Assembly: GCA_964593065.1 (NCBI GenBank) | Contig: CAZQGO010000001.1 | Coordinates: 350,082-414,081 of the forward strand | Direction of reading: 5' to 3' | Origin: an uncultured bacterium | GTDB taxonomy: Bacteria > Oederibacteriota > JAAXVQ01 | Length of the DNA stretch: 64,000 nt | In this document: positions 827 through 19,633 of the stretch, one piece after another | How the letters are laid out: each line of letters opens with the position of its first letter | How positions within the stretch are numbered: position 1 is the stretch's first letter | The notes under the pieces: generated by a model | The model's input: the letters and a program-made list of their open reading frames with translations, nothing else | Told to the model about the DNA's origin: nothing | Database searches by the model: none | Position numbers and translations under genes: made by a program

Positions 827-911
827 CCCGGCGGAGCCCCCTCCGCTAAGATATCTCCGCGGGCAAAAACCCGCACCCGCTTGATTGCGCGGAGGGCGAC
901 GGCACAGAGGC

Positions 912-3747: not shown

Positions 3748-5573
3748 TTGCGCATCATCACATGCACCCGCCCGGCCTGATACCACATGAGGTCCGTGCC
3801 GGCGGGCGGAGGGCCCGTGAACGTCAGGACGACCCGGCGCAGCGATACCCGGCGGATCGCAACCAGCGGCTGCTCCGTCACGGCCCTGAACAATTCACCC
3901 CGCTTCCCCAAATCCAGCGTAAATTCATTCACCTTCGCTTGAATATCGATGGGGTTCCAACCGGAATTCACATCGTGGAACGTTAAAGCCCCGGCATAGG
4001 TCAGGTCTGAAAGCTTTTCCAGGCGGCGCAGGTCCTGCAGGAAGGCCGGATCCTTTCGGGCCCGTGGTTGCCAGGCCGCGGGCAAATCCTCAATGTCCAT
4101 TTCAGGTGCCGCGCTTTCCGTCCCGGAATGAGATCCGGCGCGCGCGAGCACGGCCCGCAATTCCTCCGGGGACAAAGCGTAGCGCTTGACCAGGCCGGCG
4201 AACAATCGCCGGGGTTCGAAGATCCGGAGCGCGGGCGAGAAACCGATGCGGAACACGAAAGCGCCGCAATAATTGTCCGGGAGATTCATAACGACCACCT
4301 TCCGGTTTTCGATGTTTTCAACGGCGCTGTCGAGAATGCTTCGCGCCAGGCGGCCGGCCGCGACCCAGCGCTCATTGATGATCTGCAAACTCCAGGCGCC
4401 GGCCACGAGCAGAACCGCCGCCAGGGCGACGGCGTATGCCCTCCGCCGGAACAGCCTGAATACACCCAAGATCATCAGAACGCTGGTAAAGACCGAGGGC
4501 AGATACGCCAGGCGCTCGTTTTCCACGGTAGACGGCAGGACCCCCAGGCCCAAGACCGGAACCACGGCGCACAGAAAGCACAGCGGCAGGCAGGCTAAAA
4601 AACGGGAATCGGGGTTGCGGGGACGGCGCAGCAAAAACCACAGGGGCAGGATCCCGCCCGCCAGCAGGCAGGCCGCGCCCCCGGCCATCCAAAATATCTC
4701 GGCGCCCGGTTTCCAGATCCCGGCCGGCAGGGCCGGCAGAAAGGATCGCAAGGCGAAAAAAGCCAGATTTTGCAGCCCGATGCCCGGAGAAAAATACAGA
4801 TGCACTTTCTGGCCATAGACGCCCAGAGCGCTGCCCAGGACGAGAATACGCAGCAGGAAATAGGCGGCGATGATTCCGGCGGAGCAGGCCAGCGTGAGCG
4901 CCGCCCGCTTGAAAATCATCCGCCCCTCCTCACCCGCGGACCACCGCGCCGCCGCCAGCACCGCCAGGCAGGGAAACAAGGCCAGCACGCTTTCCTTGGC
5001 CAAAAGTCCGGACGCCAGGCAGCCCAGCGTCAGCAGCAAGGCGCCCGTTTTACCCAGGGATAGGTAGCGGCCGTATGCCATGAGGGCCAGGAGAAAAAGG
5101 CTCGTGGCGATCAGGTCCGCGAGGCCGCCGATGTAGGAAACGGCCTCAGTATGATTGGGCAGGACCAGGAAAAGGGCGCCGGAAAAAAACGCCGGCCACA
5201 AGACCTCCGCTCCGGCCGAAGCCGGCTTCCGCAGTTCCTGGCGCACCCAGGCGTAGACGAAGAAGGCATTGCAGGCGTGCAGCAGCACGCTCATGAGATG
5301 GTGACCCGCAGGATTGAGCCCCCACAGGCGCAAATCCAGCCAGTACGCCAGGACGGTCACGGGGCGGAAAAAGCTGGCGGGCTTACCCCCCCAGGTCCAG
5401 TAAAAACCCTTCTGGAAGAAATTGCCCAGCATGAAGAAATCGTCCGAAAGAAAAGGCACGCGGAGGATTTTCCCGTACAACGCCGCGGCGGCCAGGATGA
5501 AAACGATCAACACGGGCCAGGGCGGCCGGAAGAGGAACTCCGGCGAGAGCCAATCGCGGCGGTGGGCGGGCAC
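3744..5573 (-). CDS. polytopic membrane protein of the GT-C superfamily, PMT/TMTC-like (putative mannosyltransferase-like), paralog 1
   Basis: Many predicted TM helices. An acidic SDDFF motif sits in the first loop. The HHLMSVLLHACNAFFVY motif resembles the HLxNxxLHxxNa signature of PMT/TMTC (GT39-related) proteins. The ~200-aa soluble C-terminal domain contains LPDNYCGAFVFRIGF, which is shared with the paralog at 6675..8558. Confidence 0.65.
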   Translation of the reverse strand: MPAHRRDWLSPEFLFRPPWPVLIVFILAAAALYGKILRVPFLSDDFFMLGNFFQKGFYWTWGGKPASFFRPVTVLAYWLDLRLWGLNPAGHHLMSVLLHACNAFFVYAWVRQELRKPASAGAEVLWPAFFSGALFLVLPNHTEAVSYIGGLADLIATSLFLLALMAYGRYLSLGKTGALLLTLGCLASGLLAKESVLALFPCLAVLAAARWSAGEEGRMIFKRAALTLACSAGIIAAYFLLRILVLGSALGVYGQKVHLYFSPGIGLQNLAFFALRSFLPALPAGIWKPGAEIFWMAGGAACLLAGGILPLWFLLRRPRNPDSRFLACLPLCFLCAVVPVLGLGVLPSTVENERLAYLPSVFTSVLMILGVFRLFRRRAYAVALAAVLLVAGAWSLQIINERWVAAGRLARSILDSAVENIENRKVVVMNLPDNYCGAFVFRIGFSPALRIFEPRRLFAGLVKRYALSPEELRAVLARAGSHSGTESAAPEMDIEDLPAAWQPRARKDPAFLQDLRRLEKLSDLTYAGALTFHDVNSGWNPIDIQAKVNEFTLDLGKRGELFRAVTEQPLVAIRRVSLRRVVLTFTGPPPAGTDLMWYQAGRVHVMMRN

Positions 5574-5576
5574 GGC

Positions 5577-6650
5577 TTATTGATCCCCGCCGGCCGGCAG
5601 GAATTTATCGGCCACGGCGCAGACCAGGGTCTCGCAGACGGCGCCCGTGGCCTGTTTGGGGCCGTAGTGCAGCAGAAATTCCCGGCATTGGCGGTAGGCG
5701 GGGCCGTTCCACAATTCCGGCAAGTCCAGCTTCAGGATGTTCCCCAGCGAAAACTTGTCTTCGTACACCGTGCAGCAGGGAAATACCTCGCCGTTCCAAT
5801 GGATGATCATGGACGTGAACGGCTGGCAACACCACTCCGGCAGGCGCGGATGCAGACGAATCGCGCCCGGGGAGGAAGGCGGAGGCGCCTGCGGCCCGGA
5901 GGCGGCGGGGCCGTCCGCGTTCCGGTTTTCCTGCGCGCGATGCAGGCCGGATTTCCAGTCTTCGCGGCCCCAAACGTCCATGAGGCTGAAGCGCAGGGTC
6001 ACGCCCAGGTCCGAGGCCATTTTTTGCGCCAGGGCCTGCTCGTGCTCGTTGAAGCGGTTGACGAGGAATCCCCAGATGATTTCCGGCGTTTTCGCCCGGA
6101 GCCGCAGTTTGGCTTGCTGCAATCGGGACAGGTTGGCAAGGGCCCGCGAAAAGCTCCCCCCCACGCGGTATTTTCCGTAGGTGGCCTGGCTGGCGCCGTC
6201 CATGGAGGCGGACAGGCAGGACAAGCCCGTGGCCACGACGGCCTCGGCGTCTTTCGGGCTCAAGGCCCGGAAGGTCAGGTTCGAGTGCAGGCTGGTGTAA
6301 ATGCCCTTCGCGGACGCGGCGGCGACCATCCGCAGAATGTCCCGGTTCAAAAAAGGTTCCCCGTAGTTGAACAGGCCGATGTTGTTGGCGTGCGGGGAAA
6401 TTTTTTCCAGGATGACCTGGTAATTTTCCCAGCTTAAAAAACCCCTCGCCGTACCACGGCGGCGAAGCCCGGTGGGACAGAAAGGACAGCGCAGATTGCA
6501 CAGGTTCCCGGTCTCGATATAGTAATTCCGGGGCGGGGGACAGGTCAGTTCAGACGCAGGCATTGCGGGCCTTTCGGAAAGAATCGGCGGGTGCCAGGGA
6601 TCAGGGACGATCCAGGGGTTCGGAACCGAACCGGCACCTGCCAGAAGCAA
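5577..6650 (-). CDS. radical SAM enzyme with C-terminal Cys-rich auxiliary-cluster (SPASM/twitch-like) domain
   Basis: CNLRCPFCP (CxxxCxxC) lies near the N-terminus. The C-terminal Cys cluster is CCQPF...FPCC...C...C. The ORF as given starts with TTG at 6650. An in-frame ATG at 6563 (MPASELTCPPP...) is an alternative start. Confidence 0.8.
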   Translation of the reverse strand: MLLAGAGSVPNPWIVPDPWHPPILSERPAMPASELTCPPPRNYYIETGNLCNLRCPFCPTGLRRRGTARGFLSWENYQVILEKISPHANNIGLFNYGEPFLNRDILRMVAAASAKGIYTSLHSNLTFRALSPKDAEAVVATGLSCLSASMDGASQATYGKYRVGGSFSRALANLSRLQQAKLRLRAKTPEIIWGFLVNRFNEHEQALAQKMASDLGVTLRFSLMDVWGREDWKSGLHRAQENRNADGPAASGPQAPPPSSPGAIRLHPRLPEWCCQPFTSMIIHWNGEVFPCCTVYEDKFSLGNILKLDLPELWNGPAYRQCREFLLHYGPKQATGAVCETLVCAVADKFLPAGGDQ

Positions 6651-6674: not shown

Positions 6675-8558
6675 TCAATTCATCTTGCTTCCGGGCAGGG
6701 GCCGCAGTCGGCCGCGGTCAAAGTAAAGGACGTCCGTGTCCCCGGGCAAACCCCGGGGCAAGAAGACGGTTAGAAGCGGAGTGGTCAGGCCGTGGGCCGC
6801 ATACTCCTCCTGCCCGGAAGGGGATAGGAACCAGAAAAAAACTCCGGGTTCCTCGAGCCGGACTTCCAGGCGCCGCGGGTACTGGGTAACGGAGACGCGG
6901 TCCTCGGGAGTGATCAGGCCGTGCAGTCCCAGGACCGAGATTTCGGAAAGGTTCAACCAGCGCCGGTATTGCTTCAGCAAGCCCTGCCAGGGTTCCACCG
7001 CCAGCCGGCCCGACGACAGCCAGCCGGAAAACAGCCGGGGCAGCTCCTCCGGTTTGAGGCGGGCCGCGGGATGCTTCACTTCCGCCAGGAATTCCTCGAG
7101 GCCGGGCAGGGACTTCTGGTCGGGGATTTGCTCCAATACCCGGGGGAATCTCAGCTTTTCCACAGCGATGGCCTCGGCGAAGCCGGTCCTCCAGATATAA
7201 GCTCCGCGGTAGTTGTCCGGCAGGTTCAGTACCAGCAATTTTGGCTGTGAAATCCGGGCCAGGGCGTCTTGGACCAGATGCCGGGAAATCCTGCCGGCCG
7301 TATGCCAGTAGCCGTGCACGACCTGCATGCCGGCCGCGCCCGCTAGGAGCAGGATAGGCACCAGGGCCAGGCGCAGCCACCGCGTCCGCACCCAAAATCC
7401 CAAACCCGTTGCCAGCGCGCAGGCCATGAACACCGATGGGAAATACAGAAACCGTTCTCCGTCGGTCCCGTACGGGTCGAGGAAGAGATTCGCGCTGGGC
7501 AATTCGGCGCAGAAAAAAAGCGCCAGCAGAACCAGGAAAAGCGTGAAAACCGGCCGGCCGGAGGCAGGGAGGCGCCTGCCTGAAAGAAAAAGCAGCAGCG
7601 CCAGGAGGAACCAGAAGAGCATGGGAAAGATCCGGGAGCTCAGCAGGCCCTTGAGCGCGAGCGGCAGGGGCGGCGTCAGGCTCCTGACCCCGGCCCAAGC
7701 CCAATTGGAGAGCAGGAGCCCGGGTGACCAGTCGAGATGGATATCGGCTCCGTAGCCGCCGATCCAGGCTCCCAAAATCAGGTGGCGCGCATAGAAATAA
7801 CCGGCCGCCAGGAGCAGTGCGAGGAGCAAAGGACCGGCGAGCCGGCTCGCGAATCGTCCGCGAATTTCCGGCACCGCGGCCCAATAAAAAATCGCCAACC
7901 CCGCCAGGCACAAGGGCAGGATCAGGGCGCTTTCCTTGGACAAGAGCGCCAAGGCGAAGGCGGCCGCAAACATCGTCAGGGTGGCGGCCCGGGGACGGAG
8001 CAGGTGCCGGGTGAACGCCAGCAGCGCCAGCAGGAGGAAAAATGTGACCAGGAGATCGGGCCGCCCGGAGATCCAGTCCACGGCCTCGCTGTGACTGGGC
8101 ATCACTAAAAAGATGAGGCCCGCGACCAGGGCGACCACCTGTGCCCGGTGCGTCCCGATGCGTTGCAGCGGCTCGCGGAAAAAGACCGCCACCAGGCAGG
8201 CGTTGGCCAGGTGCAGCATCAGGTTGCAGAGGTGAAATCCGGCGGGGTGGAGTCCCCAAATACGGATGTCCAGCCAGTAACTCAGGAGCGGCAGGGGACG
8301 GAAGAAAATCGCGCCGGGCATGCGCCAGGACTCGAACCAGGGTTTGTCAACCAGGGTTACCAGGAAGGTAAAATCATCGGCCAGGAAAGGCAGGCTCAGG
8401 CAGCTCCAGAAAACCAGCAAACCCGAAGCAAAAATCAAAACCCAAACCAGCCAGCCGGGGACCGCCCGGGATGTACCCCCATCGTTCCGGAACAGGCTCC
8501 AGCCGGCATTCGGTCGCGAAGTCATAATGTGCGCATGGTAGCACGAAAATCCGGGCAT
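6675..8558 (-). CDS. polytopic membrane protein of the GT-C superfamily, PMT/TMTC-like, paralog 2
   Basis: Same architecture as 3744..5573: LADDFTFL loop motif, FHLCNLMLHLANACLVAVF motif, and a C-terminal domain with LPDNYRGAYIWRTGF. Clear paralogy at protein level. Confidence 0.65.
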   Translation of the reverse strand: MPGFSCYHAHIMTSRPNAGWSLFRNDGGTSRAVPGWLVWVLIFASGLLVFWSCLSLPFLADDFTFLVTLVDKPWFESWRMPGAIFFRPLPLLSYWLDIRIWGLHPAGFHLCNLMLHLANACLVAVFFREPLQRIGTHRAQVVALVAGLIFLVMPSHSEAVDWISGRPDLLVTFFLLLALLAFTRHLLRPRAATLTMFAAAFALALLSKESALILPLCLAGLAIFYWAAVPEIRGRFASRLAGPLLLALLLAAGYFYARHLILGAWIGGYGADIHLDWSPGLLLSNWAWAGVRSLTPPLPLALKGLLSSRIFPMLFWFLLALLLFLSGRRLPASGRPVFTLFLVLLALFFCAELPSANLFLDPYGTDGERFLYFPSVFMACALATGLGFWVRTRWLRLALVPILLLAGAAGMQVVHGYWHTAGRISRHLVQDALARISQPKLLVLNLPDNYRGAYIWRTGFAEAIAVEKLRFPRVLEQIPDQKSLPGLEEFLAEVKHPAARLKPEELPRLFSGWLSSGRLAVEPWQGLLKQYRRWLNLSEISVLGLHGLITPEDRVSVTQYPRRLEVRLEEPGVFFWFLSPSGQEEYAAHGLTTPLLTVFLPRGLPGDTDVLYFDRGRLRPLPGSKMN

Positions 8559-8587
8559 ATCCAGACCCGAAATTCAGTTTGAAATAG

Positions 8588-8616
8588 TTGACTTACCTTT
8601 CGGAAATAATGATAAT
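8588..8616 (+). promoter_or_regulatory. sigma70-like promoter (TTGACT-N17-GATAAT) in the divergent intergenic region
   Basis: TTGACT at 8588-8593, a 17-nt spacer, GATAAT at 8611-8616. It sits where the six-frame ORF nominally starts, which argues that the true CDS start is downstream. Confidence 0.3.
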
Positions 8617-8818
8617 AATGATTCGCGCCGAATGCGACTCAGGCAATGTCTGGACACGAGCGTTTCGTCCGTTTGCTCATCACCAACTTTCCACGCCGGA
8701 TGAAATCCAATATCCAAAAGGGCGGTTTTGGTTGGCGGTTGCCCGGGAAATCTTTGGCCGTGGGGGACACGTTCGGCTCCGGACCCGCGTTGAAAGCCAC
8801 GAAAAAGGTGTGCGGCTC

Positions 8819-11800
8819 ATGGAAGAGAGGCAGGAACAAGCACCGGCACCGTCCCTGGCTGCGGTTTTTCACGATCTCCCGGACGATTTTTGGTACTGGT
8901 GCCTCACCGAAGGCATCCAGCGCGGCTGGCTGACCGATCTGCTGCCCTGGCTGCCGCCGGAAGGCGTCCAGGAAAAGTACACCGGGCGGTCGGGGGAGCC
9001 GGCCCTGTCCCAGGCTTTCGGCTTTTTCCAGCTCTGCAAGCAGGAACTCGGCCGCCTGGGCCTCGAATTGGCACCGGATTCACGGGTGTTGGATTTCGGC
9101 TGCGGTTGGGGCCGCATCACCCGTTTGCTCCTGAAGGACGTCCATCCCCGGAACGTGACGGGCGTGGACATGCTCGACGAAGCCATCCGCATTTGCCGCA
9201 AGTCGAATTTTCCCTGCGCTTTCGAGCGCATTTCCCCCCGGCCGCCCATTTTTTACGCCGACGAATCCCTGGATTATATTTTCGCCTATTCGGTCTTCAC
9301 CCATTTGTCCGAGGAATGCGCCCGCGCCTGGATCGGGGAGTTCCGGAGGATCCTCAAGCCCGGGGGCGTGGTTTTCGCCACCATCAGGCCGCCGGAGGCC
9401 GTGGAGGAGTTCGCCCGGCTGCGCCAGGTCCCGGACATCCCTTCCTCCGGGCAAACCGCGGCGCAGGCTTTCCAGGACTTGGACCGGGTGCGGCGGGACT
9501 ATGCGGCCGGGCGCTTTGTTTTCGAACCCTCGCCAGGAGCCTCCCCGGAAGGCGCCTGCTTCGGCGAAGCCCTCATTCCGCCGGCCTATGCGCAGCGGAA
9601 TTATTCCGGCCATTTTCCCGAAATCCGCATCCTGGAGTCCCGGGACCACGGGCGGTTCGACCAGCACCTGCTGATTCTGCGCAAAGCCCCCCGGCCCGTC
9701 GCGTCGGCGGCAGGACCGGCGGCCGAGCCGGCTCTCCCCCCGGCGCGCGAGCCGGAGCTGCCCTGGACCGGGGAACGTCTGGTCACCTCCCTGCGGGGAC
9801 CCATTGTCGGCGAACATTTGCACCGCTATGCCCTGGCCGCCGAACTGGTCGCCGGCCGGACGGTGCTGGACGTGGCCTGCGGCGAGGGCTACGGTTCGCA
9901 CCTGCTGGGACGCCGGGCCCGGCGCGTCCTGGGCGTGGACAATTCCCCGGAGACCATCGAGCACGCGCGCGCGAAGTATGGGCGGGAGAATGTGGAATTC
10001 CAGGTGGGTTCGGCGGAAGCCATCCCCCTGCCGGACCGGTCCGTGGACGCCGTCGTCACCTTCGAAACCATCGAGCACCTGCGCGCTCCCGGCCCCTTCC
10101 TGGCCGAGATTCGCCGCTGCCTGGGACCCCGGGGCGTGCTGGTCATTTCCTCTCCGGACCGGGAGCCCTACCAAGAGGCCACGCCCGAGCCCAATGTTTT
10201 CCATGAGCAGGAATTGACCCATGCGCAGTTCGCCGAACTGCTACGGGGAACATTCCGGCACGTGTTCCTGGCGCGCCAGCGCTTTCTCCAGGGGTCCTTC
10301 ATGGCGCCGGACCAGGAGGATCCCGCGCCCCGCCTGGGCACCTTTTCCGGCAATTTCAACGAGGTATCCTTCCATCCCGGCGTGAACAGGGGCATCTATT
10401 CCATCGCCGTGTGTTCCGACGCCCCCCTGGAACGCGTTCCCATGGGGGTGTTTGAAAGCCCCCTGGCCAACGCGGACGGGGCCTGGACCCAGTGGGCCCA
10501 GGTGCAGCGGCGCCTGCAGGAATTGAGCGAGGAATACCGGCAGCTGGCCGCCGCGCACGCCCTGGGACAGCGCGTGAACGCCGTCCTGGGATTTTTACGC
10601 GCCGAGCAGGAAAAGGACCGCGTGCTCCAGGAAACACGCCTGGAGCAGGAGCGCGAAAGCAACCGGAACCTTTCGGAAGCCCTGGAGCAAGCCCGGGAGC
10701 GGATCGGAGAGCTGGGCCGCGAACTCGAACGGGTCAATTCCCAGAAGCACCAGATGCTGCTGACCCTGCAGCAGTTCGAACAACGCCTCCACTGGCAGCG
10801 GCACCGGCATCAGAAAATGCGGACGCAGTTGATCGTGGCCAACAATCTGGCGCGCACGTTCCGCGGCCTGCTCCCGGCCTGCAAACGCGCGAGCCTGAGG
10901 AAATGGCAGCGGATCCGCCGCCGGGTCCTTCCTCCCGCCCAAGCCCGGCGCGGCCTGCTGCACGGGCTGTGGACCGTGCTGGATTGGCCGTGGCGCGCCT
11001 GGCATGCCCGCCCGAGCCAGCGCCGCCTCGTGCGCGCCAGCGGACTGTTCGACGCCGCTTATTACCTCGAACAGGTTCCCGACCTGGCGGCCCGCGGCCT
11101 GGATCCCGTGAAGCACTACCTGGCGCGCGGAGCCGAGGAGGGGCGGAATCCCAGCGCCTTGTTTGACACGTCCTTCTACCTGCGCAGCAACCCGGACGTG
11201 GACGAGTTCGGCGTCAACCCGCTCGTGCATTTCATCCAATCCGGAATGGACGAGGAACGCGATCCTTCGCCGGCCTTCGACACGCAGTATTACCTGGAAA
11301 ACAATTCCGACCTGGTGGCGGCCGGAGTGTCCGCGTTCCCGCATTATTATCACACCGGACGCCGCGAGGGCCGGCTGGCGCATGCGCATGGCGCCGGGGG
11401 CGACTCCCGGGCCGAATCCGGCGGCTCCTCGCCCGCCCCGGCCGCTCCGGCCGGCGAGGACGGGGACGGGCGCGAGCCCGTTGAACCGCGCTGGCGTTCC
11501 ACGGTGGATTGGCGCCGGCGTCCGCAGCCGGAACCCGGCAACGTGAAATGCATTGCCTTCTACCTGCCCCAGTTTCACCCCGTGCCGGAGAACGACGAAT
11601 GGTGGGGGGAAGGCTTCACCGAGTGGGAAATGGTCTCGCGGGCGGCGCCGCTGTTTCACGGGCATTACCAGCCGCACCGGCCCGCGGAACTCGGCTTTTA
11701 CGACCTGCGCGTTCCGGAGGTCCGGGAAAAGCAGGCGGCCATGGCCCGGGCCTTCGGCATCCAGGGCTTCTGCTACTATTATTACTGGTTCAACGGCCAG

Positions 11801-13831
11801 CGCCTGCTCGACCGGCCGCTGCAGGAGGTCCTGGCTTCGGGCCGGCCTGACTTTCCATTCTGCATCTGCTGGGCCAACGAGAACTGGACTCGCCGCTGGG
11901 ACGGCCAGGACCAGCAGGTGCTCATTGAGCAGGGGCATTCCTTCGAGTCGGACGTGGCTTTCATCCGGGACGTGATCCCCATCCTGAAAGACCCCCGCTA
12001 CCTCCGCTTCGAGGGCAAGCCCGTGCTGCTGGTCTATCGCGCGGACAAACTGCGGGATCCGCGGGCCACGGCCCGGGCCTGGCGCGACCTGTGCGCCCAG
12101 GCCGGAATCCCGGGCCTGCATCTGTGCATGGTGGAGATTCTGGGCACCGGCCAGCCCCAGCAGCGGGGATTCGACGCGCTGGTGGAATTTCCTCCCAACA
12201 GTTACCTGTGCAAGAACATCGCGCACTCGGTCCGGGGACTGCATCCCCAGTTTCGGGGGCAGATTTTCGACTACCGGGAACTGGCCGGCCAGTCCCTGCA
12301 GCACCGGCCGGAGGGTTATCCGTACCACCGCACCGTGATGGGCATGTGGGACAACACCGCACGCACGGGCCAGGATGCGCGGATTTTCCATCACGCCCGG
12401 CCCGACCTCTACGAGCACTGGCTGGAAACGTTCGTGCGGGAAGCCAAAAGCCGGCGGGACCAGGAAGCCTTGATTTTCATCAACGCCTGGAACGAATGGG
12501 GAGAGGGCGCGCACTTGGAGCCCGACCGGCGCCACGGATTCGGCTGGCTGGAAGCCACGGCCCGCGCCCTGTCCGCGAAGCCCGGCGCGGCCCGGGCGCT
12601 TCCGGAGCAGCCGCCGGCCGCCGCCGGCCCGGAGCCGTCCGGGGCGGAAGCGTCGCACGCGACGGAGGGCGGGGAGGAGGCGGCCGCGGCCGGAAAAAAC
12701 GGCGGGATCGTGCTGGTCGTGCACAACGCCCTGCAATTCGGCACGCAGTTTCTTTCCCTGGCGCTGGCCGAGACCTGGCTGCGGCGGTACCGCGAAAAAA
12801 TGTTCGTGCTCCTCAAGCAGGGAGGCGAACTGGAACCGGCCTTTGCCCGGACCGGCCATGTGATCAACCTCGAATCCGAAACCCGCCGTTTGGGCTCCGA
12901 GGCGGCGGCCCTGGAAAGGATCCGGCGCCGCCTGCAAGCGGCCGGAGTCGACCGCTGCCTGTGCAACAGCGTGGTCACCGGGGACCTGGCCCGGTTTTTC
13001 AAGCAGCAGGGCTGCCGGGTGGTTTCGCTGGTGCATGAATTGCCCGCGCTCACCGCCACCTACGGGTACGAGCACCTGGCCGAGTGGCTGGCGGCCTCCT
13101 CCGACCGCCTGATCTTCCCGGTCGAAGCCGTCCGCCGCCCTTTTGTCGAGCGCTTCGCCGTGCCGGACGAAAAGACGCTCATCCGGCCCCAGGGAATCAT
13201 GCGGCCCAATCCGTACCTGCAGCGCCGGGAATGGGCGCGGCGCACGCTGCAGAAACGCCACCAATTGGGCCCGGATTTCAAGCTGGTTCTAAACTGCGCC
13301 TACGGCGACCTGCGCAAGGGCCCGGACCTTTTCCTGGCCGTGGCCCGGCAGGTGCTGCAGCAGCGGGCGGCGGACAACGTTCATTTCGTCTGGGCCGGGG
13401 CTTTTGAAAGGGAACTCAAGGCCTGGTGCGAACACGACCGGAGGGGCATGGCCTTTGCCGACCGGGTGCATTTCATCGGCTTCCAGCAGGACGACGCCGT
13501 CTACCAGGCGGCGGCCGACATTCTGGCCTTAACCTCCCGCGAGGACCCCCTGCCGCATGTCATGCTCTCGGCCATGGAGGCCGGCGTGCCCGTGGTCGCG
13601 TTTGCCGGCAGCGGCGGCGCGGATGAAATCCTGGCGGACGGCCGGGGCGTCCTGGTGCCGTATCTGGACGTGGCCGGCATGGCCGGCGCAATCGCGGGGC
13701 TGCTGCTGGACGAGGAGCGGCGACGGGACATCGGCCGCCGGGCCGCGGAGACGATCGCGCGCTCGTTCCGGTTTGAGGATTACGTGGATTTCATCGCGCG
13801 GCAATTCGAAAAGGTCCCGGCGGGGCGGTAA
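8819..13831 (+). CDS. giant multidomain glycan-modifying protein: 2x class I SAM methyltransferase, coiled coil, 3 tandem ~38-aa repeats, WbsX-like domain, GT4 glycosyltransferase domain
   Basis: MT1 is VLDFGCGWGRIT. MT2 is VLDVACGEGYGSHLL. A heptad-rich, coiled-coil-like segment (ELSEEYRQLAAA...RLEQERESNRNLSEALEQARERIGELGRELERVNSQKHQ) follows. Three repeats run FDxxYYLxxNPDVxxxGxxPLxHFxxxGxxEGRxPS. The WbsX-type motif is CIAFYLPQFHPVPENDEWWGEGFTEWEMV. The C-terminal GT4-like segment is HFIGFQQDD...LPHVMLSAMEAGVPVVAF. The ORF is open from 8588 (TTG). I prefer the in-frame ATG at 8819 (MEERQEQ...) because a promoter-like element overlaps 8588-8616. Confidence 0.8.
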   Translation: MEERQEQAPAPSLAAVFHDLPDDFWYWCLTEGIQRGWLTDLLPWLPPEGVQEKYTGRSGEPALSQAFGFFQLCKQELGRLGLELAPDSRVLDFGCGWGRITRLLLKDVHPRNVTGVDMLDEAIRICRKSNFPCAFERISPRPPIFYADESLDYIFAYSVFTHLSEECARAWIGEFRRILKPGGVVFATIRPPEAVEEFARLRQVPDIPSSGQTAAQAFQDLDRVRRDYAAGRFVFEPSPGASPEGACFGEALIPPAYAQRNYSGHFPEIRILESRDHGRFDQHLLILRKAPRPVASAAGPAAEPALPPAREPELPWTGERLVTSLRGPIVGEHLHRYALAAELVAGRTVLDVACGEGYGSHLLGRRARRVLGVDNSPETIEHARAKYGRENVEFQVGSAEAIPLPDRSVDAVVTFETIEHLRAPGPFLAEIRRCLGPRGVLVISSPDREPYQEATPEPNVFHEQELTHAQFAELLRGTFRHVFLARQRFLQGSFMAPDQEDPAPRLGTFSGNFNEVSFHPGVNRGIYSIAVCSDAPLERVPMGVFESPLANADGAWTQWAQVQRRLQELSEEYRQLAAAHALGQRVNAVLGFLRAEQEKDRVLQETRLEQERESNRNLSEALEQARERIGELGRELERVNSQKHQMLLTLQQFEQRLHWQRHRHQKMRTQLIVANNLARTFRGLLPACKRASLRKWQRIRRRVLPPAQARRGLLHGLWTVLDWPWRAWHARPSQRRLVRASGLFDAAYYLEQVPDLAARGLDPVKHYLARGAEEGRNPSALFDTSFYLRSNPDVDEFGVNPLVHFIQSGMDEERDPSPAFDTQYYLENNSDLVAAGVSAFPHYYHTGRREGRLAHAHGAGGDSRAESGGSSPAPAAPAGEDGDGREPVEPRWRSTVDWRRRPQPEPGNVKCIAFYLPQFHPVPENDEWWGEGFTEWEMVSRAAPLFHGHYQPHRPAELGFYDLRVPEVREKQAAMARAFGIQGFCYYYYWFNGQRLLDRPLQEVLASGRPDFPFCICWANENWTRRWDGQDQQVLIEQGHSFESDVAFIRDVIPILKDPRYLRFEGKPVLLVYRADKLRDPRATARAWRDLCAQAGIPGLHLCMVEILGTGQPQQRGFDALVEFPPNSYLCKNIAHSVRGLHPQFRGQIFDYRELAGQSLQHRPEGYPYHRTVMGMWDNTARTGQDARIFHHARPDLYEHWLETFVREAKSRRDQEALIFINAWNEWGEGAHLEPDRRHGFGWLEATARALSAKPGAARALPEQPPAAAGPEPSGAEASHATEGGEEAAAAGKNGGIVLVVHNALQFGTQFLSLALAETWLRRYREKMFVLLKQGGELEPAFARTGHVINLESETRRLGSEAAALERIRRRLQAAGVDRCLCNSVVTGDLARFFKQQGCRVVSLVHELPALTATYGYEHLAEWLAASSDRLIFPVEAVRRPFVERFAVPDEKTLIRPQGIMRPNPYLQRREWARRTLQKRHQLGPDFKLVLNCAYGDLRKGPDLFLAVARQVLQQRAADNVHFVWAGAFERELKAWCEHDRRGMAFADRVHFIGFQQDDAVYQAAADILALTSREDPLPHVMLSAMEAGVPVVAFAGSGGADEILADGRGVLVPYLDVAGMAGAIAGLLLDEERRRDIGRRAAETIARSFRFEDYVDFIARQFEKVPAGR

Positions 13832-13842
13832 AATCCCCCGCG

Positions 13843-14086: not shown

Positions 14087-14128
14087 TGAAAGTACCCACC
14101 CGGGCGTGGGCACGAAAGGAAAGCGTGC

Positions 14129-15556
14129 ATGGTATTTTCCTCGGTCAGCTTTTTATTTTACTTTCTGCCGGTGGTCCTCCTGGCCTATTTCCTCGTGCGT
14201 CCCGCCTGGCGGAATTTCGTGCTCCTGCTGTCCGGGCTGGTCTTTTACCTCTGGGGCGCGGGTGAAATCGTCTTCATCCTGATGTTGTCCATCGCCTTGA
14301 ATTGGGTTTTCGGGCTGATGGCCGCTGCGGCCCGCGACAGCGGGGAACGGTGGCGCCGGAACCTGCCGGTGATCGCCTCCGTGATCGTGAACCTGGGCAT
14401 CCTGGGCTATTTCAAGTACACGAATTTTTTCGTCGCCCAGATCAACCATCTCGGGGAAATCACGCGGGCCGGTTTCATGCCGGTCTATCTCGCGCCCATC
14501 CTGCTGCCCATCGGCGTGTCCTTCTTCACGTTTCAGGCCATGAGCTACGTGATCGACGTGGCCCAGGGCCGCGTGGAGCCCCTGCAAAACCCGGTGGACT
14601 TCGGCATGTACATCGCCATGTTTCCCCAGCTGGTGGCCGGGCCGATCGTCCGCTACCATGAAATCGCCCCGCAAATCCACCGGCGCGGCGTCACCTGGGA
14701 AGGCTTCTCCGCCGGCATGGTGCGTTTCATTCACGGCCTGGTCAAAAAGGTGGTTTTCGCGGATTCGATCGGGCTGCTGGCCGACCAGGCTTTCAAGGCG
14801 CCCGAGCGCTTGAGCGCCGGCGGCGCCTGGCTGGGGCTGCTGGCCTTCACCATCCAGGTCTATTTCGATTTCTCGGGCTATTCGGACATGGCCATCGGCC
14901 TGGGCCAGATGTTCGGCTTCCGCCTGCCCGAGAATTTCAACCGGCCCTATTCGGCCGTGAGTTTCACGGACTTCTGGCGGCGCTGGCACATGACCCTTTC
15001 GCACTGGTTCCGCGATTACGTCTACATTCCCCTGGGCGGATCGCGGCGGGGACCCTGGCGCACCTACCTCAACCTCGTCATCGTCTTTTTCCTGGTGGGA
15101 TTCTGGCACGGCGCCAACTGGACGTTCGTGGTCTTCGGCCTCTACCACGGCTTCTGGATGAGCCTGGAGCGGGCCACCGGGCGCCGGTTTGCCGGAGAGA
15201 TGAAACACCCCCTGGTCCGCCGGGCGCTCACTTTCTTCCTCATCCTCCTGGGCATGACCCTGTTTCGTGCCGAGAACATGCATCAGGCCTGGACCTATTA
15301 CCAGACCTTGTTCGGCCTGCGGGGCGGCACGCAGTTTTTGGCCCCGGGCACGGATTGGCAGGGTCTGGTCTTTCTGGCCCTGGGCAGCCTGGTGGTTTTC
15401 CTGCCCGACAACCTCGTGGTGGGCAGGCTCCTGGAGCAGTCCGAAAAACGCGCCGTGGCCTGGATGCGGCTCGGCCTGGCCACCGTGGCCCTGACCTTCG
15501 CCATCATGCTGATCGTCAGCCGGAATTACACTCCCTTCATCTACTTCCAATTCTGA
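14129..15556 (+). CDS. MBOAT family membrane-bound O-acyltransferase (AlgI/DltB-like)
   Basis: Polytopic protein. FWRRWHMTLSHWFRDYVYIPLGG carries the conserved His motif of MBOAT proteins. Size 475 aa. Confidence 0.9.
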   Translation: MVFSSVSFLFYFLPVVLLAYFLVRPAWRNFVLLLSGLVFYLWGAGEIVFILMLSIALNWVFGLMAAAARDSGERWRRNLPVIASVIVNLGILGYFKYTNFFVAQINHLGEITRAGFMPVYLAPILLPIGVSFFTFQAMSYVIDVAQGRVEPLQNPVDFGMYIAMFPQLVAGPIVRYHEIAPQIHRRGVTWEGFSAGMVRFIHGLVKKVVFADSIGLLADQAFKAPERLSAGGAWLGLLAFTIQVYFDFSGYSDMAIGLGQMFGFRLPENFNRPYSAVSFTDFWRRWHMTLSHWFRDYVYIPLGGSRRGPWRTYLNLVIVFFLVGFWHGANWTFVVFGLYHGFWMSLERATGRRFAGEMKHPLVRRALTFFLILLGMTLFRAENMHQAWTYYQTLFGLRGGTQFLAPGTDWQGLVFLALGSLVVFLPDNLVVGRLLEQSEKRAVAWMRLGLATVALTFAIMLIVSRNYTPFIYFQF

Positions 15557-18054
15557 TGACCCGGAAACGCTCCCTCACCCTCTGCGCCGCCGTCGGCCTT
15601 TTCTGGCTGTGCCTGCCGCTGCCGCTGACGCCCTGGCTCAGCCACTACAACCGGGACTTCATCGAAAACGTGGAAAAGCGCCTGCCCGCAACCTGGCCCC
15701 ACCTCGGCGGACCCCGGGACCTGCTGCGGGCCCAAACCTACCGGCGCATCAGCGCGTTCCTGCAGGACCGCATGCCGTTTCGCGACTGGCTGATCACGGG
15801 CGAGCGGCGGCTCGCGTACCTGTTTTTTAAACGCCGGAGTTTCGGCCAGGTGGATGTGGGCCGGGACGGATGGCTCTTCATCCGCGACGCCTATTACCGG
15901 CCCACGGAAAACGAACAGAAGGTGCGCCAGGTGCTGCGCGAGGTGGATTATTTCCTGACCCGCCGGCCGCCGGGGGAAGCCAGCCTGCTGCTGGTGATCG
16001 GGCCCGACAAGGACTCCATTTACCCCGAAAAAATGAGCGCCACCTGCCTGGCGTACCAGGCCAAGGCCGACAACCGGAGAAAGCTCATCCGCGAGTTCTT
16101 CACGCGCCCCCACGGCGGACGGGTGTTGGGCTTGTGGTCCGCGTATCTGCGGGAAAAGAAGACTTCGCCGGTATTGCTGTTTTATCCCAAGGACACGCAC
16201 CATACCCCCACCGGCGCGCTGATCATGTGCCGCGGCATCATCGAGGCCGTGCAGCCGGGACTGTGGCGCCCGGAGGAGGTCCGGAACAAGGGCCGGCAGA
16301 CCAAGGTGGGGGATTTAAGCCTCCTGGCCGGCCTGGGCTGGGGGATCGACGTCGTGCAGGATTGCGACGTCGTACGCCCGGGCGTCCAGCTGGTGAAGCG
16401 CATCGCCCTGGATCACACCGGCAGCTGGAAGGATTCGGCCCGCTACCTTTCCCGCAGCGACACGCGCCCCCTGATCCCGGGCCGGACCGCGATCCTGCAT
16501 GATTCCCTGCTCGGGGCCAACCGGGAAACCCTGCGGCAGTTTTTCCGGGACGTCACCTTCATCCATTACGAAAAAATCTACAGCGCGGACAAACTCCAGG
16601 CCGTGATGCGGCAGTACGACCGGGTGATCATGGAGGTGGTGGAACGCGAATCCGTCGGCATCTTGGAGAAGCTTCTCGACGGTTACAACTACCACGTCCT
16701 GCGCGAGCTGGGACCCGGGGATTTTTCGGCCGTCACTTCCAACCAGCAGGTCAAATTATCCCCGGCCGGGACGGAGTTGGTGGCCGAGGCCTCGGGCTAC
16801 GACCCCATGATCTTCATTCCCAGCCCCCACCTGCGCCTGAATACGGAGTACCTGGTGTGGATCGACCTGGAATCCACGGCGGACACCTACTGCCAGCTGT
16901 TTTACCAGACCAATGATGTCCCCCGCTTCGAGGACGCGCAAAGCCTCATCAAGAAGGTCGACGTGGGCCGGAATCTGCTGACGTTCCATCTGCCCGCCGG
17001 CAGCATCTGGTATCCCCTGCGGTTGGACCCCGGCCTGCAGCCGGGCCGCTACCGCTTCAAGGCTTTTCAGTACCGGCAGCTTCTGCCCCCGCCGCAAGGC
17101 GGGGAAGGGGAGGACATCCCGGAGAATGCGGTTTCCACCACGCTCTTCTTCGCCTGGGGGCCGGTCAGCCGGCTCCTGGCCACGCCGCGCGGATTCGTTG
17201 CCAGCGATCCCCGGACGAGACTGGAGAATGTGCCGGCCGGCATTCTCGTCACGGCGGCCGGGGAAGACCCGCAAATCAGCCTGCCCGTCCTGCCGGACCT
17301 GGTGGCGGGAACGCAACCGGTCCTGGAAATCGATCTCGAAGCCTCCACGGACACGTTCAGCCAGTTGTTTTATCTGACCCCCGGCGTGCCGGCCTACCGG
17401 GAAGACCTGAGCGTCAAGCAGGACATCCACCGCGGCGAGAACCGCCTGCGTTTCGTCCTGCCGCCGGAAAGCCTGCGGTTTCCCCTGCGCTTCGACCCCG
17501 GCGGGAAACCCGGAACGTACCTGTTGCGCTTCGTCAGCTTGGGCGGCGCGTGGCCGGCCAGCCTGCAGGCCGAGGCGGTCCGGCCGGGAATGCCTCCCCC
17601 CGCCCGTGCCAAACTGAATATGTTATACTTGATCGGCCGGAAAAAACTCTGGACCGGGGCGGAACTTCTGCCCCGGCTCCTGTGGCGGCAACAGGTCAAC
17701 CTCAAAGCTGCGGGCCCGGGTCTGGCGGTCCAGGTCCTGGGAAACGACCCGATCCTGGGCCTGCCGGCCTTCGAACCCCCCCGGACGGAAGGCTATTACC
17801 AGGTCAGCCTGAAACTGTTTTCGCCCCGCGCCACGGAGGCCCAGTTGTATTACCTCGAGCCCGGGGAGAAAAATTACCGCGAGGAGGCCAGCGCGCGCTG
17901 CGGAGTCCGCCCGGGACTCAATACCCTGGTTTTTCTCGTGGAGGGGCGGCAGCTCCTGCAGCCCCTGCGACTCGATCCGGCCTGCCATCCCGGGGAATAC
18001 CGGCTGGACGCGCTGGAAATCGAGGAAGTCACGACCGGCGACCTCCGGCGCTGA
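15556..18054 (+). CDS. AlgJ/AlgX-like (SGNH-like) O-acetyltransferase partner with three C-terminal ~100-aa repeat domains
   Basis: N-terminal signal anchor. A GRDGWLF motif and a DTHHT (DxHWT-like) motif are typical of AlgJ/AlgX/AlgV. The C-terminal triple repeats each begin ...QLFY(Q/L)T..VP.(F/Y)(E/R)(D/E).... ATG at 15556 overlaps the MBOAT stop (ATGA). The six-frame ORF nominally starts at 15355, inside the upstream gene. Confidence 0.75.
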   Translation: MTRKRSLTLCAAVGLFWLCLPLPLTPWLSHYNRDFIENVEKRLPATWPHLGGPRDLLRAQTYRRISAFLQDRMPFRDWLITGERRLAYLFFKRRSFGQVDVGRDGWLFIRDAYYRPTENEQKVRQVLREVDYFLTRRPPGEASLLLVIGPDKDSIYPEKMSATCLAYQAKADNRRKLIREFFTRPHGGRVLGLWSAYLREKKTSPVLLFYPKDTHHTPTGALIMCRGIIEAVQPGLWRPEEVRNKGRQTKVGDLSLLAGLGWGIDVVQDCDVVRPGVQLVKRIALDHTGSWKDSARYLSRSDTRPLIPGRTAILHDSLLGANRETLRQFFRDVTFIHYEKIYSADKLQAVMRQYDRVIMEVVERESVGILEKLLDGYNYHVLRELGPGDFSAVTSNQQVKLSPAGTELVAEASGYDPMIFIPSPHLRLNTEYLVWIDLESTADTYCQLFYQTNDVPRFEDAQSLIKKVDVGRNLLTFHLPAGSIWYPLRLDPGLQPGRYRFKAFQYRQLLPPPQGGEGEDIPENAVSTTLFFAWGPVSRLLATPRGFVASDPRTRLENVPAGILVTAAGEDPQISLPVLPDLVAGTQPVLEIDLEASTDTFSQLFYLTPGVPAYREDLSVKQDIHRGENRLRFVLPPESLRFPLRFDPGGKPGTYLLRFVSLGGAWPASLQAEAVRPGMPPPARAKLNMLYLIGRKKLWTGAELLPRLLWRQQVNLKAAGPGLAVQVLGNDPILGLPAFEPPRTEGYYQVSLKLFSPRATEAQLYYLEPGEKNYREEASARCGVRPGLNTLVFLVEGRQLLQPLRLDPACHPGEYRLDALEIEEVTTGDLRR

Positions 18055-18071: not shown

Positions 18072-18839
18072 TTGAACCGCAACACCCGTCAGTTCCTGGA
18101 TCTGATCCTCGTTCTCACCCAGAAGGACCTGAAGGTGAGGTACAAGAACAGCGTGCTGGGGTATCTGTGGTCCGTGGCCAATCCCCTGGCTTTCGCCCTC
18201 GTGTTCTACTTTGCCTTCAAGGTCATCATGCGGGTGGACATGGAGGATTACGCCCTGTTCCTCATCGTCGGCCTGTTTCCCTGGCAGTGGTTTTCCAATT
18301 CCATCAACATCTCCTCCACGGTGTTCCTGTCCAACGCCAGCATCATCAAGAAGGTGAGTTTCCCGCGCAACATCATTCCCTTAAGCATCGTATTGCAGGA
18401 CATGATCCATTACATCCTGTCCCTGCCCGTGATCGGGCTCTTCCTCCTGCTCTATCAAAAACCCGCGCAGGCGGCCTGGCTCTGGGGCATCCCGCTGCTG
18501 CTGGCCGGGCAATTCATGCTCATCTACGGCCTGGCCCTGGCCGTGTCCAGCATCAACCTCTTTTTCCGCGACCTGGAACGAATCGTCGGCATATTGATGA
18601 TGATCGTTTTTTATTGCACCCCCATCCTCTACCCGCTGGACATGATTCCCGCGCGGTTTCAGCACTGGGTGGGGTTGAATCCTTTCGCGACGGCGATCTT
18701 GGGCTGGCGGACCCTGCTTTTGGACGGACGCCTGGATCCCGTCGCCGCCGGACTCACCCTGGCCTACGGCCTGGCGGCTTTGGGCCTGGGCACCTGGATC
18801 TATTCCCGCCTGGCCTGGAAGTTTGCGGAGGTCCTATGA
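18072..18839 (+). CDS. wzm: ABC-2 type polysaccharide exporter permease (Wzm/KpsM-like)
   Basis: NRNTRQFLDLILVLTQKDLKVRYKNSVLGYLWSVANPL is the canonical ABC-2 N-terminal motif. Six TM segments. Candidate TTG start at 18072, preceded by GGAAAGGG. The six-frame ORF is over-extended back to 17550. Confidence 0.8.
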   Translation: MNRNTRQFLDLILVLTQKDLKVRYKNSVLGYLWSVANPLAFALVFYFAFKVIMRVDMEDYALFLIVGLFPWQWFSNSINISSTVFLSNASIIKKVSFPRNIIPLSIVLQDMIHYILSLPVIGLFLLLYQKPAQAAWLWGIPLLLAGQFMLIYGLALAVSSINLFFRDLERIVGILMMIVFYCTPILYPLDMIPARFQHWVGLNPFATAILGWRTLLLDGRLDPVAAGLTLAYGLAALGLGTWIYSRLAWKFAEVL

Positions 18840-19633
18840 GCGACCCCGTCATCCGGTTCGAGTCCGTGGGCAAGCGTTATCCCCAGTACCATCACATCAC
18901 CGCGGGCTTCAAGCCCTTCCTGTTCCGCTGGCTGTGCCGCCTCGGGCGAACCGGCTCCGAAACCTTCGAAGCCTTAAGGGCGGTGACGTTCGAGGTCCGC
19001 CCGGGCGAAACACTCGGCATCATCGGCCGCAACGGTTCGGGCAAGAGCACGGTCCTGGGGCTGATCGCCGGCGTGCTCCGGCCGACTTCCGGAACCGTGC
19101 GGGTGCGGGGCAGGGTGGCTCCGCTGCTGGAACTCGGCGCGGGATTTCATCCCGAACTCACCGGCCGCGAGAACATATTTTTAAACGGGATCCTGCTGGG
19201 GCTGACGCGCGCCGAGGTCGCGCGGAAGCTCGATGCCATCATCGCCTTCTCGGAACTCGGGGAGTTCATCCACGAGCCCATCCGCATCTATTCCAGCGGC
19301 ATGCTGGCCCGCCTGGGTTTCGCCGTGATCTCGTCCCTGGATCCGGAAATCCTGCTGGTGGATGAAATTCTGGCCGTGGGGGACATGGATTTCCAGAAAA
19401 AATGCGTGGACCGCGCCCTCGAGTTCAAGCGCCGCGGCGTCACCATTATTTACGTCTCGCACGCCTTGGACCAGGTTCAGGAATTGTCCGACCGGGCCTT
19501 GTGGCTCGATGAGCATACGGTTCAGGCCTGGGGGAACCCGGCCGAAGTCGTGGACGCCTACCGGCGGCATTCATCCCCGCAGCGGGGACCGGACGGCGGC
19601 CGGCCCGAAGCGCCGGGCGGGGAAGCCCCATGA
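18836..19633 (+). CDS. wzt: ABC transporter ATP-binding protein (Wzt/KpsT-like, no C-terminal carbohydrate-binding domain)
   Basis: Walker A GRNGSGKST, signature YSSGMLARLGF, Walker B ILLVDEILAVGD. Only 265 aa. ATG overlaps the wzm stop (ATGA). Confidence 0.9.
   Translation: MSDPVIRFESVGKRYPQYHHITAGFKPFLFRWLCRLGRTGSETFEALRAVTFEVRPGETLGIIGRNGSGKSTVLGLIAGVLRPTSGTVRVRGRVAPLLELGAGFHPELTGRENIFLNGILLGLTRAEVARKLDAIIAFSELGEFIHEPIRIYSSGMLARLGFAVISSLDPEILLVDEILAVGDMDFQKKCVDRALEFKRRGVTIIYVSHALDQVQELSDRALWLDEHTVQAWGNPAEVVDAYRRHSSPQRGPDGGRPEAPGGEAP

Follow-up and report, generated by a model that had tools for sequence, protein, structure and literature searches.

A putative polymerase-terminator fusion protein beside an ABC transporter without a carbohydrate-binding module in an uncultured bacterium

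Introduction

How is the length of a surface glycan controlled, and how is its export gated, when the transporter through which it leaves the cytoplasm lacks the module that reads the end of the chain? This question is raised by a 64,000-nucleotide stretch of DNA (hereafter the window) from an uncultured bacterium of the GTDB lineage Bacteria; Oederibacteriota; JAAXVQ01 (GenBank assembly GCA_964593065.1, contig CAZQGO010000001.1, positions 350,082 to 414,081 of the forward strand), in which a gene for a very large multidomain protein (hereafter the large protein) is found at 8819..13831, upstream of the genes for the ATP-binding cassette (ABC) exporter Wzm/Wzt. In the current model of ABC-transporter-dependent glycan synthesis, the cap at the end of the chain, a ruler formed by a coiled coil and a transporter module that reads the cap are tied together (PMC11231755). 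The window and its closest relatives keep the parts for capping and measuring and not the reader, while their nearest relatives outside this clade keep all three. Based on these comparisons, we consider it somewhat probable that the large protein serves as polymerase and terminator at once in a glycan pathway that depends on an ABC transporter, so that capping and extension would be combined in one peripheral cytoplasmic protein. Coordinates below are those of the window and refer to its forward strand unless the reverse strand is named.

Domain organization of the large protein

The open reading frame (ORF) of the large protein extends from an ATG at 8819 to a stop codon at 13829-13831. A preliminary description of this DNA had recognised the ORF and its fused nature correctly and had given its length as 1671 residues, a number that counts the stop codon; the protein itself has 1670 amino acids. 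It is predicted to be soluble, as no transmembrane segment is predicted anywhere in the 1670 residues, and its multidomain nature is based on the ORF, Pfam matches and orthologue alignment. From the N- to the C-terminus it consists of two methyltransferase domains (MT1 and MT2), a helical segment, a basic, tryptophan-rich segment, three repeats of about 38 residues, a WbsX domain and a glycosyltransferase (GT) domain of family GT4. The order of methyltransferases, coil, repeats, WbsX and GT4 had been proposed before, and Pfam annotation, a heptad scan, repeat alignment and AlphaFold2 bear it out. In the AlphaFold2 model of residues 1-910, which was built from a 38-row alignment and has a mean predicted local distance difference test (pLDDT) score of 80.8, disordered linkers are found between the MT1 and MT2 folds and between the repeats and WbsX.

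MT1 (8846..9688; residues ~10-290) and MT2 (9764..10453; residues ~316-545) are both class I S-adenosylmethionine (SAM) methyltransferase domains, matched by Pfam at residues ~77-186 and ~345-451, respectively, and modelled confidently by AlphaFold2 at residues 10-290 and 328-545. Motif I is intact in both (LDFGCGWG in MT1, LDVACGEGYG in MT2), both lie N-terminal to the helical segment, and methyl transfer is predicted for them; MT2 is also preceded by a conserved lead-in, WTGER...EHLHRYA. The nearest solved methyltransferases found by PDB search and Foldseek are a mixture of small-molecule and sugar O-methyltransferases, so that comparison with these two types, suggested in the preliminary description as a check on the terminator idea, discriminates neither way; with the N-terminal model, Foldseek returned generic class I methyltransferases only, among which the two types could not be told apart. 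A metagenome scan with the N-terminal half of the protein returned distant methyltransferases only.

The helical spacer that follows (10463..10873; residues 549-685), a candidate coiled-coil ruler identified by heptad scan and AlphaFold2, is 137 residues long, contains zero prolines, is composed of E, K, R and Q to 41% and scores as heptad-rich by a home-made heuristic; the heptad-rich segment of about 150 residues described earlier was thus about right in length. A monomeric AlphaFold2 model, with pLDDT of 50-80, contains helices at residues 550-599, 611-682, 684-703 and 715-741. Among the orthologues the spacer varies in length, and the distance from MT2 to the repeats ranges from 190 to 252 residues. 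The last part of the helical region in the large protein is a basic segment (10874..11041; residues 686-741) with 15 K/R, one D/E and five W, helical in the AlphaFold2 model, which is a candidate membrane-interface or partner-binding region.

Three tandem repeats of 38-39 residues (11042..11386; FDxxYYLxxNPDVxxxGxxPxxHxxxxGxxEGRxP) were found by self-alignment, as the preliminary description had noted. The units at residues 742-780, 781-818 and 819-856 are 34-44% identical in pairwise comparisons, and their alignment scores are higher than those of all 1000 of 1000 shuffled sequences, by about 10 standard deviations or more. Together they are predicted to form a small helical domain in which short helices, three per unit, are modelled with pLDDT 93-96. 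The repeat matched no Pfam family, and a search of the repeat region against PDB sequences returned nothing meaningful. The repeat is widespread: at E<=1e-3 the number of representative protein clusters that match it is 23,211, at E<=1e-10 it is 14,132, proteins with 12-13 matching stretches occur, and within the family studied here it is mostly found just 5' of WbsX. It appears to be an unannotated module that is very common in large glycan-synthesis proteins.

An AAGGTG-like site precedes the ATG at 8819, and the same start methionine is found in seven full-length orthologues from a database search, which are 42-53% identical to the large protein. The gene has a G+C content at third codon positions of 0.82 and a coding-like pattern at first and second positions, as do the other genes of this 64% G+C window. 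A longer ORF, starting from a TTG at 8588, is disfavoured by the shared methionine of the orthologues and because it coincides with a promoter-like sequence, TTGACT-17-GATAAT (8588..8616; 10 of 12 positions matched, assigned by consensus match only), about 200 nucleotides 5' of the ATG. This promoter-like site lies in a divergent, AT-rich intergenic region of 260 bp (8559-8818) and would place a leader some 200 nucleotides long ahead of the gene.

The protein family and its transporters

The exporter genes are found 4 kb 3' of the large gene on the same strand, an arrangement that is kept in two orthologous loci, L001 (candidate-division FCPU426) and L003. Wzm (18072..18839) is an ABC-2 permease of 255 residues with a TTG start (ABC2_membrane, E 6e-13), and Wzt (18836..19633) is a protein of 265 residues that consists of a nucleotide-binding domain (NBD) only. 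It is of the NCBIfam TagH/Wzt type and scores 178-220 bits with the TagH and galactan-Wzt models, under their equivalog cut-offs. The Wzt proteins of L001 (246 residues) and L003 (245 residues) are also NBD-only, and the three loci share the gene order large gene, MBOAT, AlgX-like, wzm and wzt, which is kept at 42-53% identity; in the window and L003 these are followed by a GT2 gene and then by a gene for a conserved protein of about 350 residues. The MBOAT/AlgX-like pair, a putative O-acetylation pair that is an insertion in the clade of the window, is also present in L004 and in the contig of the orthologue P0002, both of which end before wzt.

Beside the seven full-length orthologues, the database search returned hundreds of related multidomain proteins. 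The segments of the large protein were mapped onto 120 of these relatives, and 108 homologues with both MT2 and WbsX were analysed. Their common core consists of an N-terminal MT2-type module (~245 residues, WTGER...EHxxRY), a spacer, none to several of the 38-residue repeats, WbsX and GT4; often GT2 follows GT4 or RgpF takes the place of GT4. In all 108 homologues the N-terminal MT2 is followed by a spacer of 94-544 residues, and 66% of them have a heptad-rich stretch of at least 56 residues. In the wider family it is MT2 that is conserved as the N-terminal module. It also occurs alone, in proteins of 415-730 residues of which several have precomputed coiled-coil family matches, and joined to other sets of GT domains. 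The MT1-type domain is an accessory, N-terminal only in the clade of the window and C-terminal or internal in other members. WbsX relatives were found in at least 581 loci (581 of 600 among the matches listed, with one genome per species), and those listed span Proteobacteria, Planctomycetota, Verrucomicrobiota, Acidobacteriota, Cyanobacteria, Firmicutes and one archaeon.

A survey of 87 fetched loci, based on stop-to-stop ORFs and single-sequence or small hidden Markov model (HMM) searches, found a Wzt-like ATPase within 10 kb in about 39, which agrees with the clustering with ABC-2 exporters expected in the preliminary description; in 28 of these 39 the ATPase has an extension of the length of a carbohydrate-binding module (CBM), while the 'Wzt' matches whose extension is short include some that belong to other ABC ATPases. 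The relatives' Wzt proteins have C-terminal extensions of 186-244 residues or a Pfam Wzt_C domain. Only 14 of the loci that encode MT2-carrying proteins have a transporter in view, and in 10 of them, all outside the clade of the window, the MT2-carrying protein is paired with a CBM-bearing Wzt. A Wzt with an extension of 188-225 residues or with Wzt_C is encoded directly upstream in Burkholderia pyrrocinia, Halomonas hibernica, Modicisalibacter, Thiothrix, two Paraburkholderia and Undibacterium (loci L005 from Burkholderia, L007 from Halomonas, L009, L012, L019, L034 and L056), and the two nearest outgroups, P0024 (L095) and P0049 (L096), also have a Wzt with a CBM directly upstream. The gene order in Nostoc (L089) is wzm, wzt with CBM, a methyltransferase, a stand-alone MT2 and coil protein and a GT, and in Caulobacter hibisci, whose large protein carries MT2, only a short Wzt-like ATPase was found, 12 kb away. 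Because MT2-carrying relatives, including the nearest outgroups, adjoin CBM-bearing Wzt proteins, the CBM-less state is a true departure from the relatives. The observation that this Wzt is unusually short and lacks a CBM, made in the preliminary description, therefore holds and extends to two orthologous loci.

Two further features of these relatives were observed. In the outgroups P0024 (L095, 6596-11827) and P0049 (L096, 6050-11392) a domain of about 290 residues that is not MT1-like precedes MT2, and sulfotransferase genes are found nearby. In L008, assigned to a Candidatus Methanoperedenaceae archaeon, a 2291-residue ORF with WbsX and GT4 (7640-14512) adjoins a Wzt with a 186-residue extension; as this is an archaeal metagenome-assembled genome, either the family and its pairing with a transporter extend from bacteria to archaea or the contig has been binned wrongly.

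The distribution of MT2 bears on what the methyltransferases do. MT2 is a candidate chain terminator, as judged from sequence comparison, and its family-wide combination with a spacer, in proteins that are paired with CBM-bearing transporters, supports a role as terminator rather than decorator; the pairing is informative because, in characterised systems, it is the terminal group that the CBM reads. Alternatively, MT1 and/or MT2 may decorate internal residues of each repeat unit, with the helix serving as a scaffold and the ratio of transporter to polymerase setting chain length in an export-coupled manner, as in Klebsiella pneumoniae O2a. We regard this as possible but rather improbable. It would fit the CBM-less Wzt, since the O1/O2a transporter, which is CBM-less too, needs no terminal residue (PMC11231755), and also the position of MT1-type domains elsewhere, beside GT domains or at the C-terminus and not at the tip of a spacer, as well as the presence of further decorating functions in the locus, namely the MBOAT/AlgX-like pair and radical SAM enzymes. 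However, the N-terminal position of MT2 before a long helical spacer throughout the 108 homologues, and the existence of stand-alone methyltransferase-coil proteins, argue against decoration, the pairing with a CBM-bearing Wzt in 10 loci is hard to explain if MT2 modifies internal residues, and systems of the O2a type have no coiled-coil protein (PMC11231755).

Another alternative is that export is still gated by the cap and that the reader is found elsewhere: in the repeats, in the β-rich C-terminal part of MT2, at an unrecognised site of Wzm/Wzt or in a direct hand-over in which the large protein touches the transporter. CBMs are divergent, the HMM used for detecting Wzt extensions, which was built from 31 members, recovered only those 31 members and is of uncertain sensitivity, the terminator protein ORF6 of K. 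pneumoniae O7 contains a CBM-like Ig domain (PMC11231755), and the 38-residue repeat domain of the large protein is well folded. The repeats and the C-terminal part of MT2 are, however, equally found in relatives that have a CBM on Wzt and are therefore no substitute for it, and no β-sandwich or Ig-like domain is found in the model of residues 1-910. Replacement of the CBM by the β-rich region after MT2 or by the repeats was accordingly rejected, and a hidden reader of any kind seems very unlikely.

The WbsX, GT4 and GT2 modules

The WbsX domain (11534..12583; residues 906-1255) is assigned by Pfam, by profile comparison with PDB and by AlphaFold2/Foldseek. Pfam PF14307 (Glyco_tran_WbsX) matches residues 912-1247 at E 1e-134, with 449.6 bits against a cut-off of 25.1 and over positions 2-350 of 350. 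This identification agrees with the preliminary description; a role of WbsX in polymerisation is less secure, as the domain is a glycoside hydrolase family 99 (GH99)-like (β/α)8 barrel and is unproven as a glycosyltransferase. A profile of the full-length family was swamped by GT and methyltransferase matches when compared with PDB, and an alignment of WbsX only was used instead; it matched the GH99 structure 5ngw at E 9e-8 and Bacteroides GH99 enzymes at ~1e-3. The AlphaFold2 model of WbsX has a predicted template modelling (pTM) score of 0.87. In a Foldseek comparison of this model with PDB, GH99 enzymes take all of the first 37 places and GH71 comes next, with sequence identity to the GH99 structures of 12-16% and template modelling (TM) scores of about 0.57. 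The GH99 motif NEWHEG of 5lyr aligns with NEWAEG of the window, NEWxEG is invariant in the WbsX family, and E1226 and E1229 are in invariant columns that align with the GH99 catalytic pair of glutamates. In the Bacteroides xylanisolvens GH99 enzyme NEWHEG holds the catalytic residues E333 and E336, which fits the E333Q and E336Q variants listed among the Foldseek matches.

In the literature searched we found no biochemical study of WbsX, PF14307 or the GH99-like family, so that 'glycosyltransferase' is a name and not a result. For the same reason, and because its fold is GH99-like, the label 'polymerase' rests firmly only on GT4. Phage-selected truncations of a homologous 'wbsX' gene, encoding more than 1450 residues, alter the O antigen of Burkholderia gladioli (PMC13391952); they are the only functional data found for the family, and the domains are not separated by them.

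The GH99-like features raise the alternative that WbsX acts as an endo-glycosidase or transglycosylase of the GH99 type, by which the growing chain would be trimmed, edited or released, while GT4 and the stand-alone GT2 proteins polymerise. The profile match to 5ngw, the correspondence of NEWHEG with the invariant NEWxEG, the ranking of GH99 and then GH71 structures in the Foldseek comparison and the fact that no published transferase assay was found would all fit such an enzyme. On the other side, WbsX is predicted to be cytoplasmic and is found at a fixed position directly before GT4, RgpF or GT2 in more than 100 multidomain glycan-synthesis proteins, as would be expected of a partner transferase; it is not obvious what purpose would be served by hydrolysing a lipid-linked chain that is still being made; and truncation of the B. 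gladioli homologue alters the O antigen, which also argues against a hydrolase, within the limit given above. We therefore consider this alternative unlikely and prefer WbsX as a possible, and GT4 as a likely, polymerising module.

The GT4 domain (12704..13813; residues ~1296-1665), predicted to be of the GT-B fold and retaining type, is assigned by Pfam, a PDB profile and alignment with BshA. Glyco_transf_4 matches weakly at residues 1354-1460, and Glycos_transf_1 matches residues 1476-1644 at E 4e-21 with 75.6 bits against a cut-off of 26.4. A candidate for a detached polymerase module is the GT2 protein of 314 residues encoded at 2803..3747 (Pfam and homology search), which is homologous (E 1e-47) to a GT2 domain at the C-terminus of the large protein of C. 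hibisci; the GT2 that is fused to the large protein elsewhere is thus a separate gene here.

Proposed mechanism and its weak points

Based on these results, we propose that the WbsX and GT4 half of the large protein would extend a glycan that is linked to polyprenol, working at the membrane's inner face and probably helped by the GT2 protein encoded at 2803-3747. The basic, tryptophan-rich segment and the 38-residue repeats would be near the polymerising modules, at the membrane-proximal end, and the helical segment of ~137-190 residues may oligomerise as a coiled coil and so keep the N-terminal methyltransferases a fixed distance away. Once the non-reducing end of the chain has grown that far, MT2 would O-methylate it, MT1 may add a second methyl group, and extension would stop. 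The finished chain would leave via Wzm/Wzt, and in the periplasm the MBOAT/AlgX-like pair would O-acetylate it. As Wzt has no CBM, export is, unlike in related systems, most likely not gated by the cap.

Several observations weigh against this mechanism. A Wzt CBM is present in every characterised terminated system (PMC11231755), and zero residues extend beyond the NBD alignment in the Wzt of the window, in which, as in L001, L003 and L004, the HMM built from the 31 Wzt extensions found no match. Neither an initiating transferase nor a ligase was found among the window ORFs scanned, which are a subset of its ORFs. On the side of the terminator, the substrates of MT1 and MT2 are not readable from sequence or fold matches, and neither the AlphaFold2 model nor the searches revealed a kinase-like or other known terminator domain in the large protein. 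The preliminary description had placed the protein near WbdD, a relationship that was not borne out: no WbdD chain was found among PDB phmmer matches at E<=0.01 or among the top 50 Foldseek matches. As for the ruler, the helical model is interrupted at residues 600-610, with monomer pLDDT of 50-80 and a crude heptad scan behind it, and a helical hairpin instead of a coiled coil is possible in the model. On the side of the polymerase, the WbsX barrel is neither GT-A nor GT-B and is not a known GT fold, and in GT4 the positions of the EX7E motif, aligned to BshA (2jjm), are occupied by D1576 and S1584, so that the second glutamate is replaced. Serine at this position (SREDPLPHVMLSAMEAG; 13541-13570, residues 1575-1584) is found in the window and in most orthologues; the second glutamate is retained in P0002 and in the wider family (D...E).

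A further step, which we put forward only tentatively, is that this clade has uncoupled ruler-dependent capping from export gating and that, in addition, WbsX may work with GT4 as a genuine polymerising transferase that has the fold of a glycoside hydrolase. If true, chain-length control and export quality control would be separable, and nature would offer, in the clade and its CBM-bearing relatives, a comparison that shows whether length control needs no more than capping and what the transporter checkpoint adds. The analysis also highlights a very widespread enzyme family in which a glycoside-hydrolase-like barrel with retained catalytic glutamates is joined to GT4. Databases name this barrel both "glycosyltransferase WbsX" and "GH99-like", and deciding between these names would affect the annotation of many surface-glycan loci (at least 581 listed).

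Other genes of the locus

Directly 3' of the large gene in all orthologous loci is a gene for an AlgI-like MBOAT membrane O-acyltransferase (14129..15556; Pfam), whose stop codon is overlapped by the start of a gene for an AlgX-like SGNH protein of 832 residues with an N-terminal anchor (15556..18054; Pfam). The C-terminal part of the AlgX-like protein contains three repeated modules, ~156-160 residues apart, with the motif QLFY...PLRLDPG (nucleotides 16804-17119, 17272-17587 and 17752-18054), and the MBOAT/AlgX-like pair is doubled in L001 (16568-19495 and 21073-23973) and L004 (6875-8224 and 12526-14952). Stop/start overlaps are also found between wzm and wzt and between wzt and the GT2 gene that follows it (19630..20529; 299 residues, family search and locus comparison). 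The next gene encodes a conserved soluble protein of 359 residues (20533..21612) that has no Pfam or NCBIfam match and has homologues in L003 (22203-23252), L023 (5275-7755) and L071 (12458-13819), with the motif FLDPD. The protein, of about 350 residues, is found after wzt and GT2 in the window and L003; the homologues outside L003 are from a Caulobacter and an Alcaligenaceae locus that encode WbsX proteins as well. It may be an unrecognised glycosyltransferase.

Upstream of the large gene, Pfam identified a B12-binding radical SAM enzyme (885..2810) and, on the reverse strand, a SPASM radical SAM enzyme (5577..6650). Both genes are part of the conserved locus, with copies at 1784-2707 and 8214-10004 in L003, where the gene for the B12-binding enzyme overlaps the start of the large gene; the two enzymes may carry out an unusual sugar modification such as C-methylation. 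Two paralogous membrane proteins with 9-10 transmembrane segments are encoded on the reverse strand (3744..5573 and 6675..8558) and have weak PMT_2 or Agl23-like matches in family searches. Both match a single 740-residue ORF of L003 (E ~1e-63 to 1e-66) and are candidates for GT-C enzymes of periplasmic glycosylation or glycan transfer. The rest of the window encodes proteins of the TamB, Omp85 and OmpA families, and the organism is therefore a diderm. By FtsH, the closest relatives that bear a name are Desulfomonilaceae/Thermodesulfobacteriota, with about 70% identity.

Comparison with known systems

The fusion of a terminator and a polymerase, which the preliminary description had put forward, is a known kind, described for WbbB and for ORF6 of K. 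pneumoniae O7 (PMC11231755). The large protein resembles O7 ORF6 in that one polypeptide, encoded in a wzm/wzt locus, combines an N-terminal SAM methyltransferase terminator, a central coil and C-terminal GT modules, with a further GT encoded separately (PMC11231755); in the large protein the terminator and the coil are predicted ones. O7 ORF6 differs in having a cryptic kinase, an Ig-like CBM, a methyl-phosphate cap, two GT2 polymerase modules and a Wzt of the CBM-bearing class (PMC11231755), whereas the large protein contains a pair of methyltransferases and a GH99-like domain with GT4, its model shows nothing kinase-like, and its Wzt is CBM-less. WbbB of K. pneumoniae O12 and Raoultella terrigena is likewise one protein, with a terminator at one end of the coil and two polymerising modules at the other, but its terminator is a β-Kdo transferase (GT99), its polymerase consists of GT102 and GT103, and export needs a Kdo-binding CBM on Wzt (PMC11231755).

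Separate proteins are used in Escherichia coli O9a, where a methyltransferase terminator, as is proposed for the large protein, sits on an extended, length-setting coil whose membrane-proximal part recruits a GT4-type polymerase (PMC3482155, PMC11231755). In that system WbdD, which contains a kinase domain, and WbdA, a polymerase with two GT4 modules, are proteins of their own, and Wzt has a CBM (PMC3482155, PMC11231755). The transporter NBD of K. pneumoniae O1/O2a, like that of the window, has no CBM, but the O2a system has neither a terminator nor a coil protein, and its chain length is set by the stoichiometry of transporter and polymerase, with extension coupled to export (PMC11231755). 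The TET operon of Pseudomonas syringae encodes Wzm, Wzt, an O-methyltransferase named 'wbdD' and a GT4 polymerase, and in some isolates the GT and methyltransferase genes are fused; its Wzt has a C-terminal binding domain, WbsX is not described there, and the functions are assigned by homology only (PMC7820976).

The WbsX domain, for its part, shares the (β/α)8 barrel and the Glu-x-x-Glu motif with the GH99 endo-α-1,2-mannosidases and mannanases, such as Bacteroides GH99 enzymes and human MANEA (4ad1, 5lyr, 6zfn); WbsX differs from these enzymes in being cytoplasmic and joined to glycosyltransferases in biosynthetic loci. A further fusion, WsaE of Geobacillus stearothermophilus, was reportedly described by Steiner and colleagues in 2008 as an O-methyltransferase, capping the rhamnose at the non-reducing end, joined to rhamnosyltransferases in an ABC-transporter-dependent S-layer glycan pathway; its transferase domains are of the GT2 type, and it is not known to contain a GH99-like domain or a long coiled coil. 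In the literature searched, which did not cover a dedicated survey of terminators and CBMs, the GH99-like family, the head of two methyltransferases and the conserved CBM-less transporter appear to be unstudied. The best-supported interpretation of our analysis is that the large protein belongs to the known kind of terminator-coil-polymerase fusions and would resemble WbbB and O7 ORF6 in the way it works, rather than being a homologue of WbdD.

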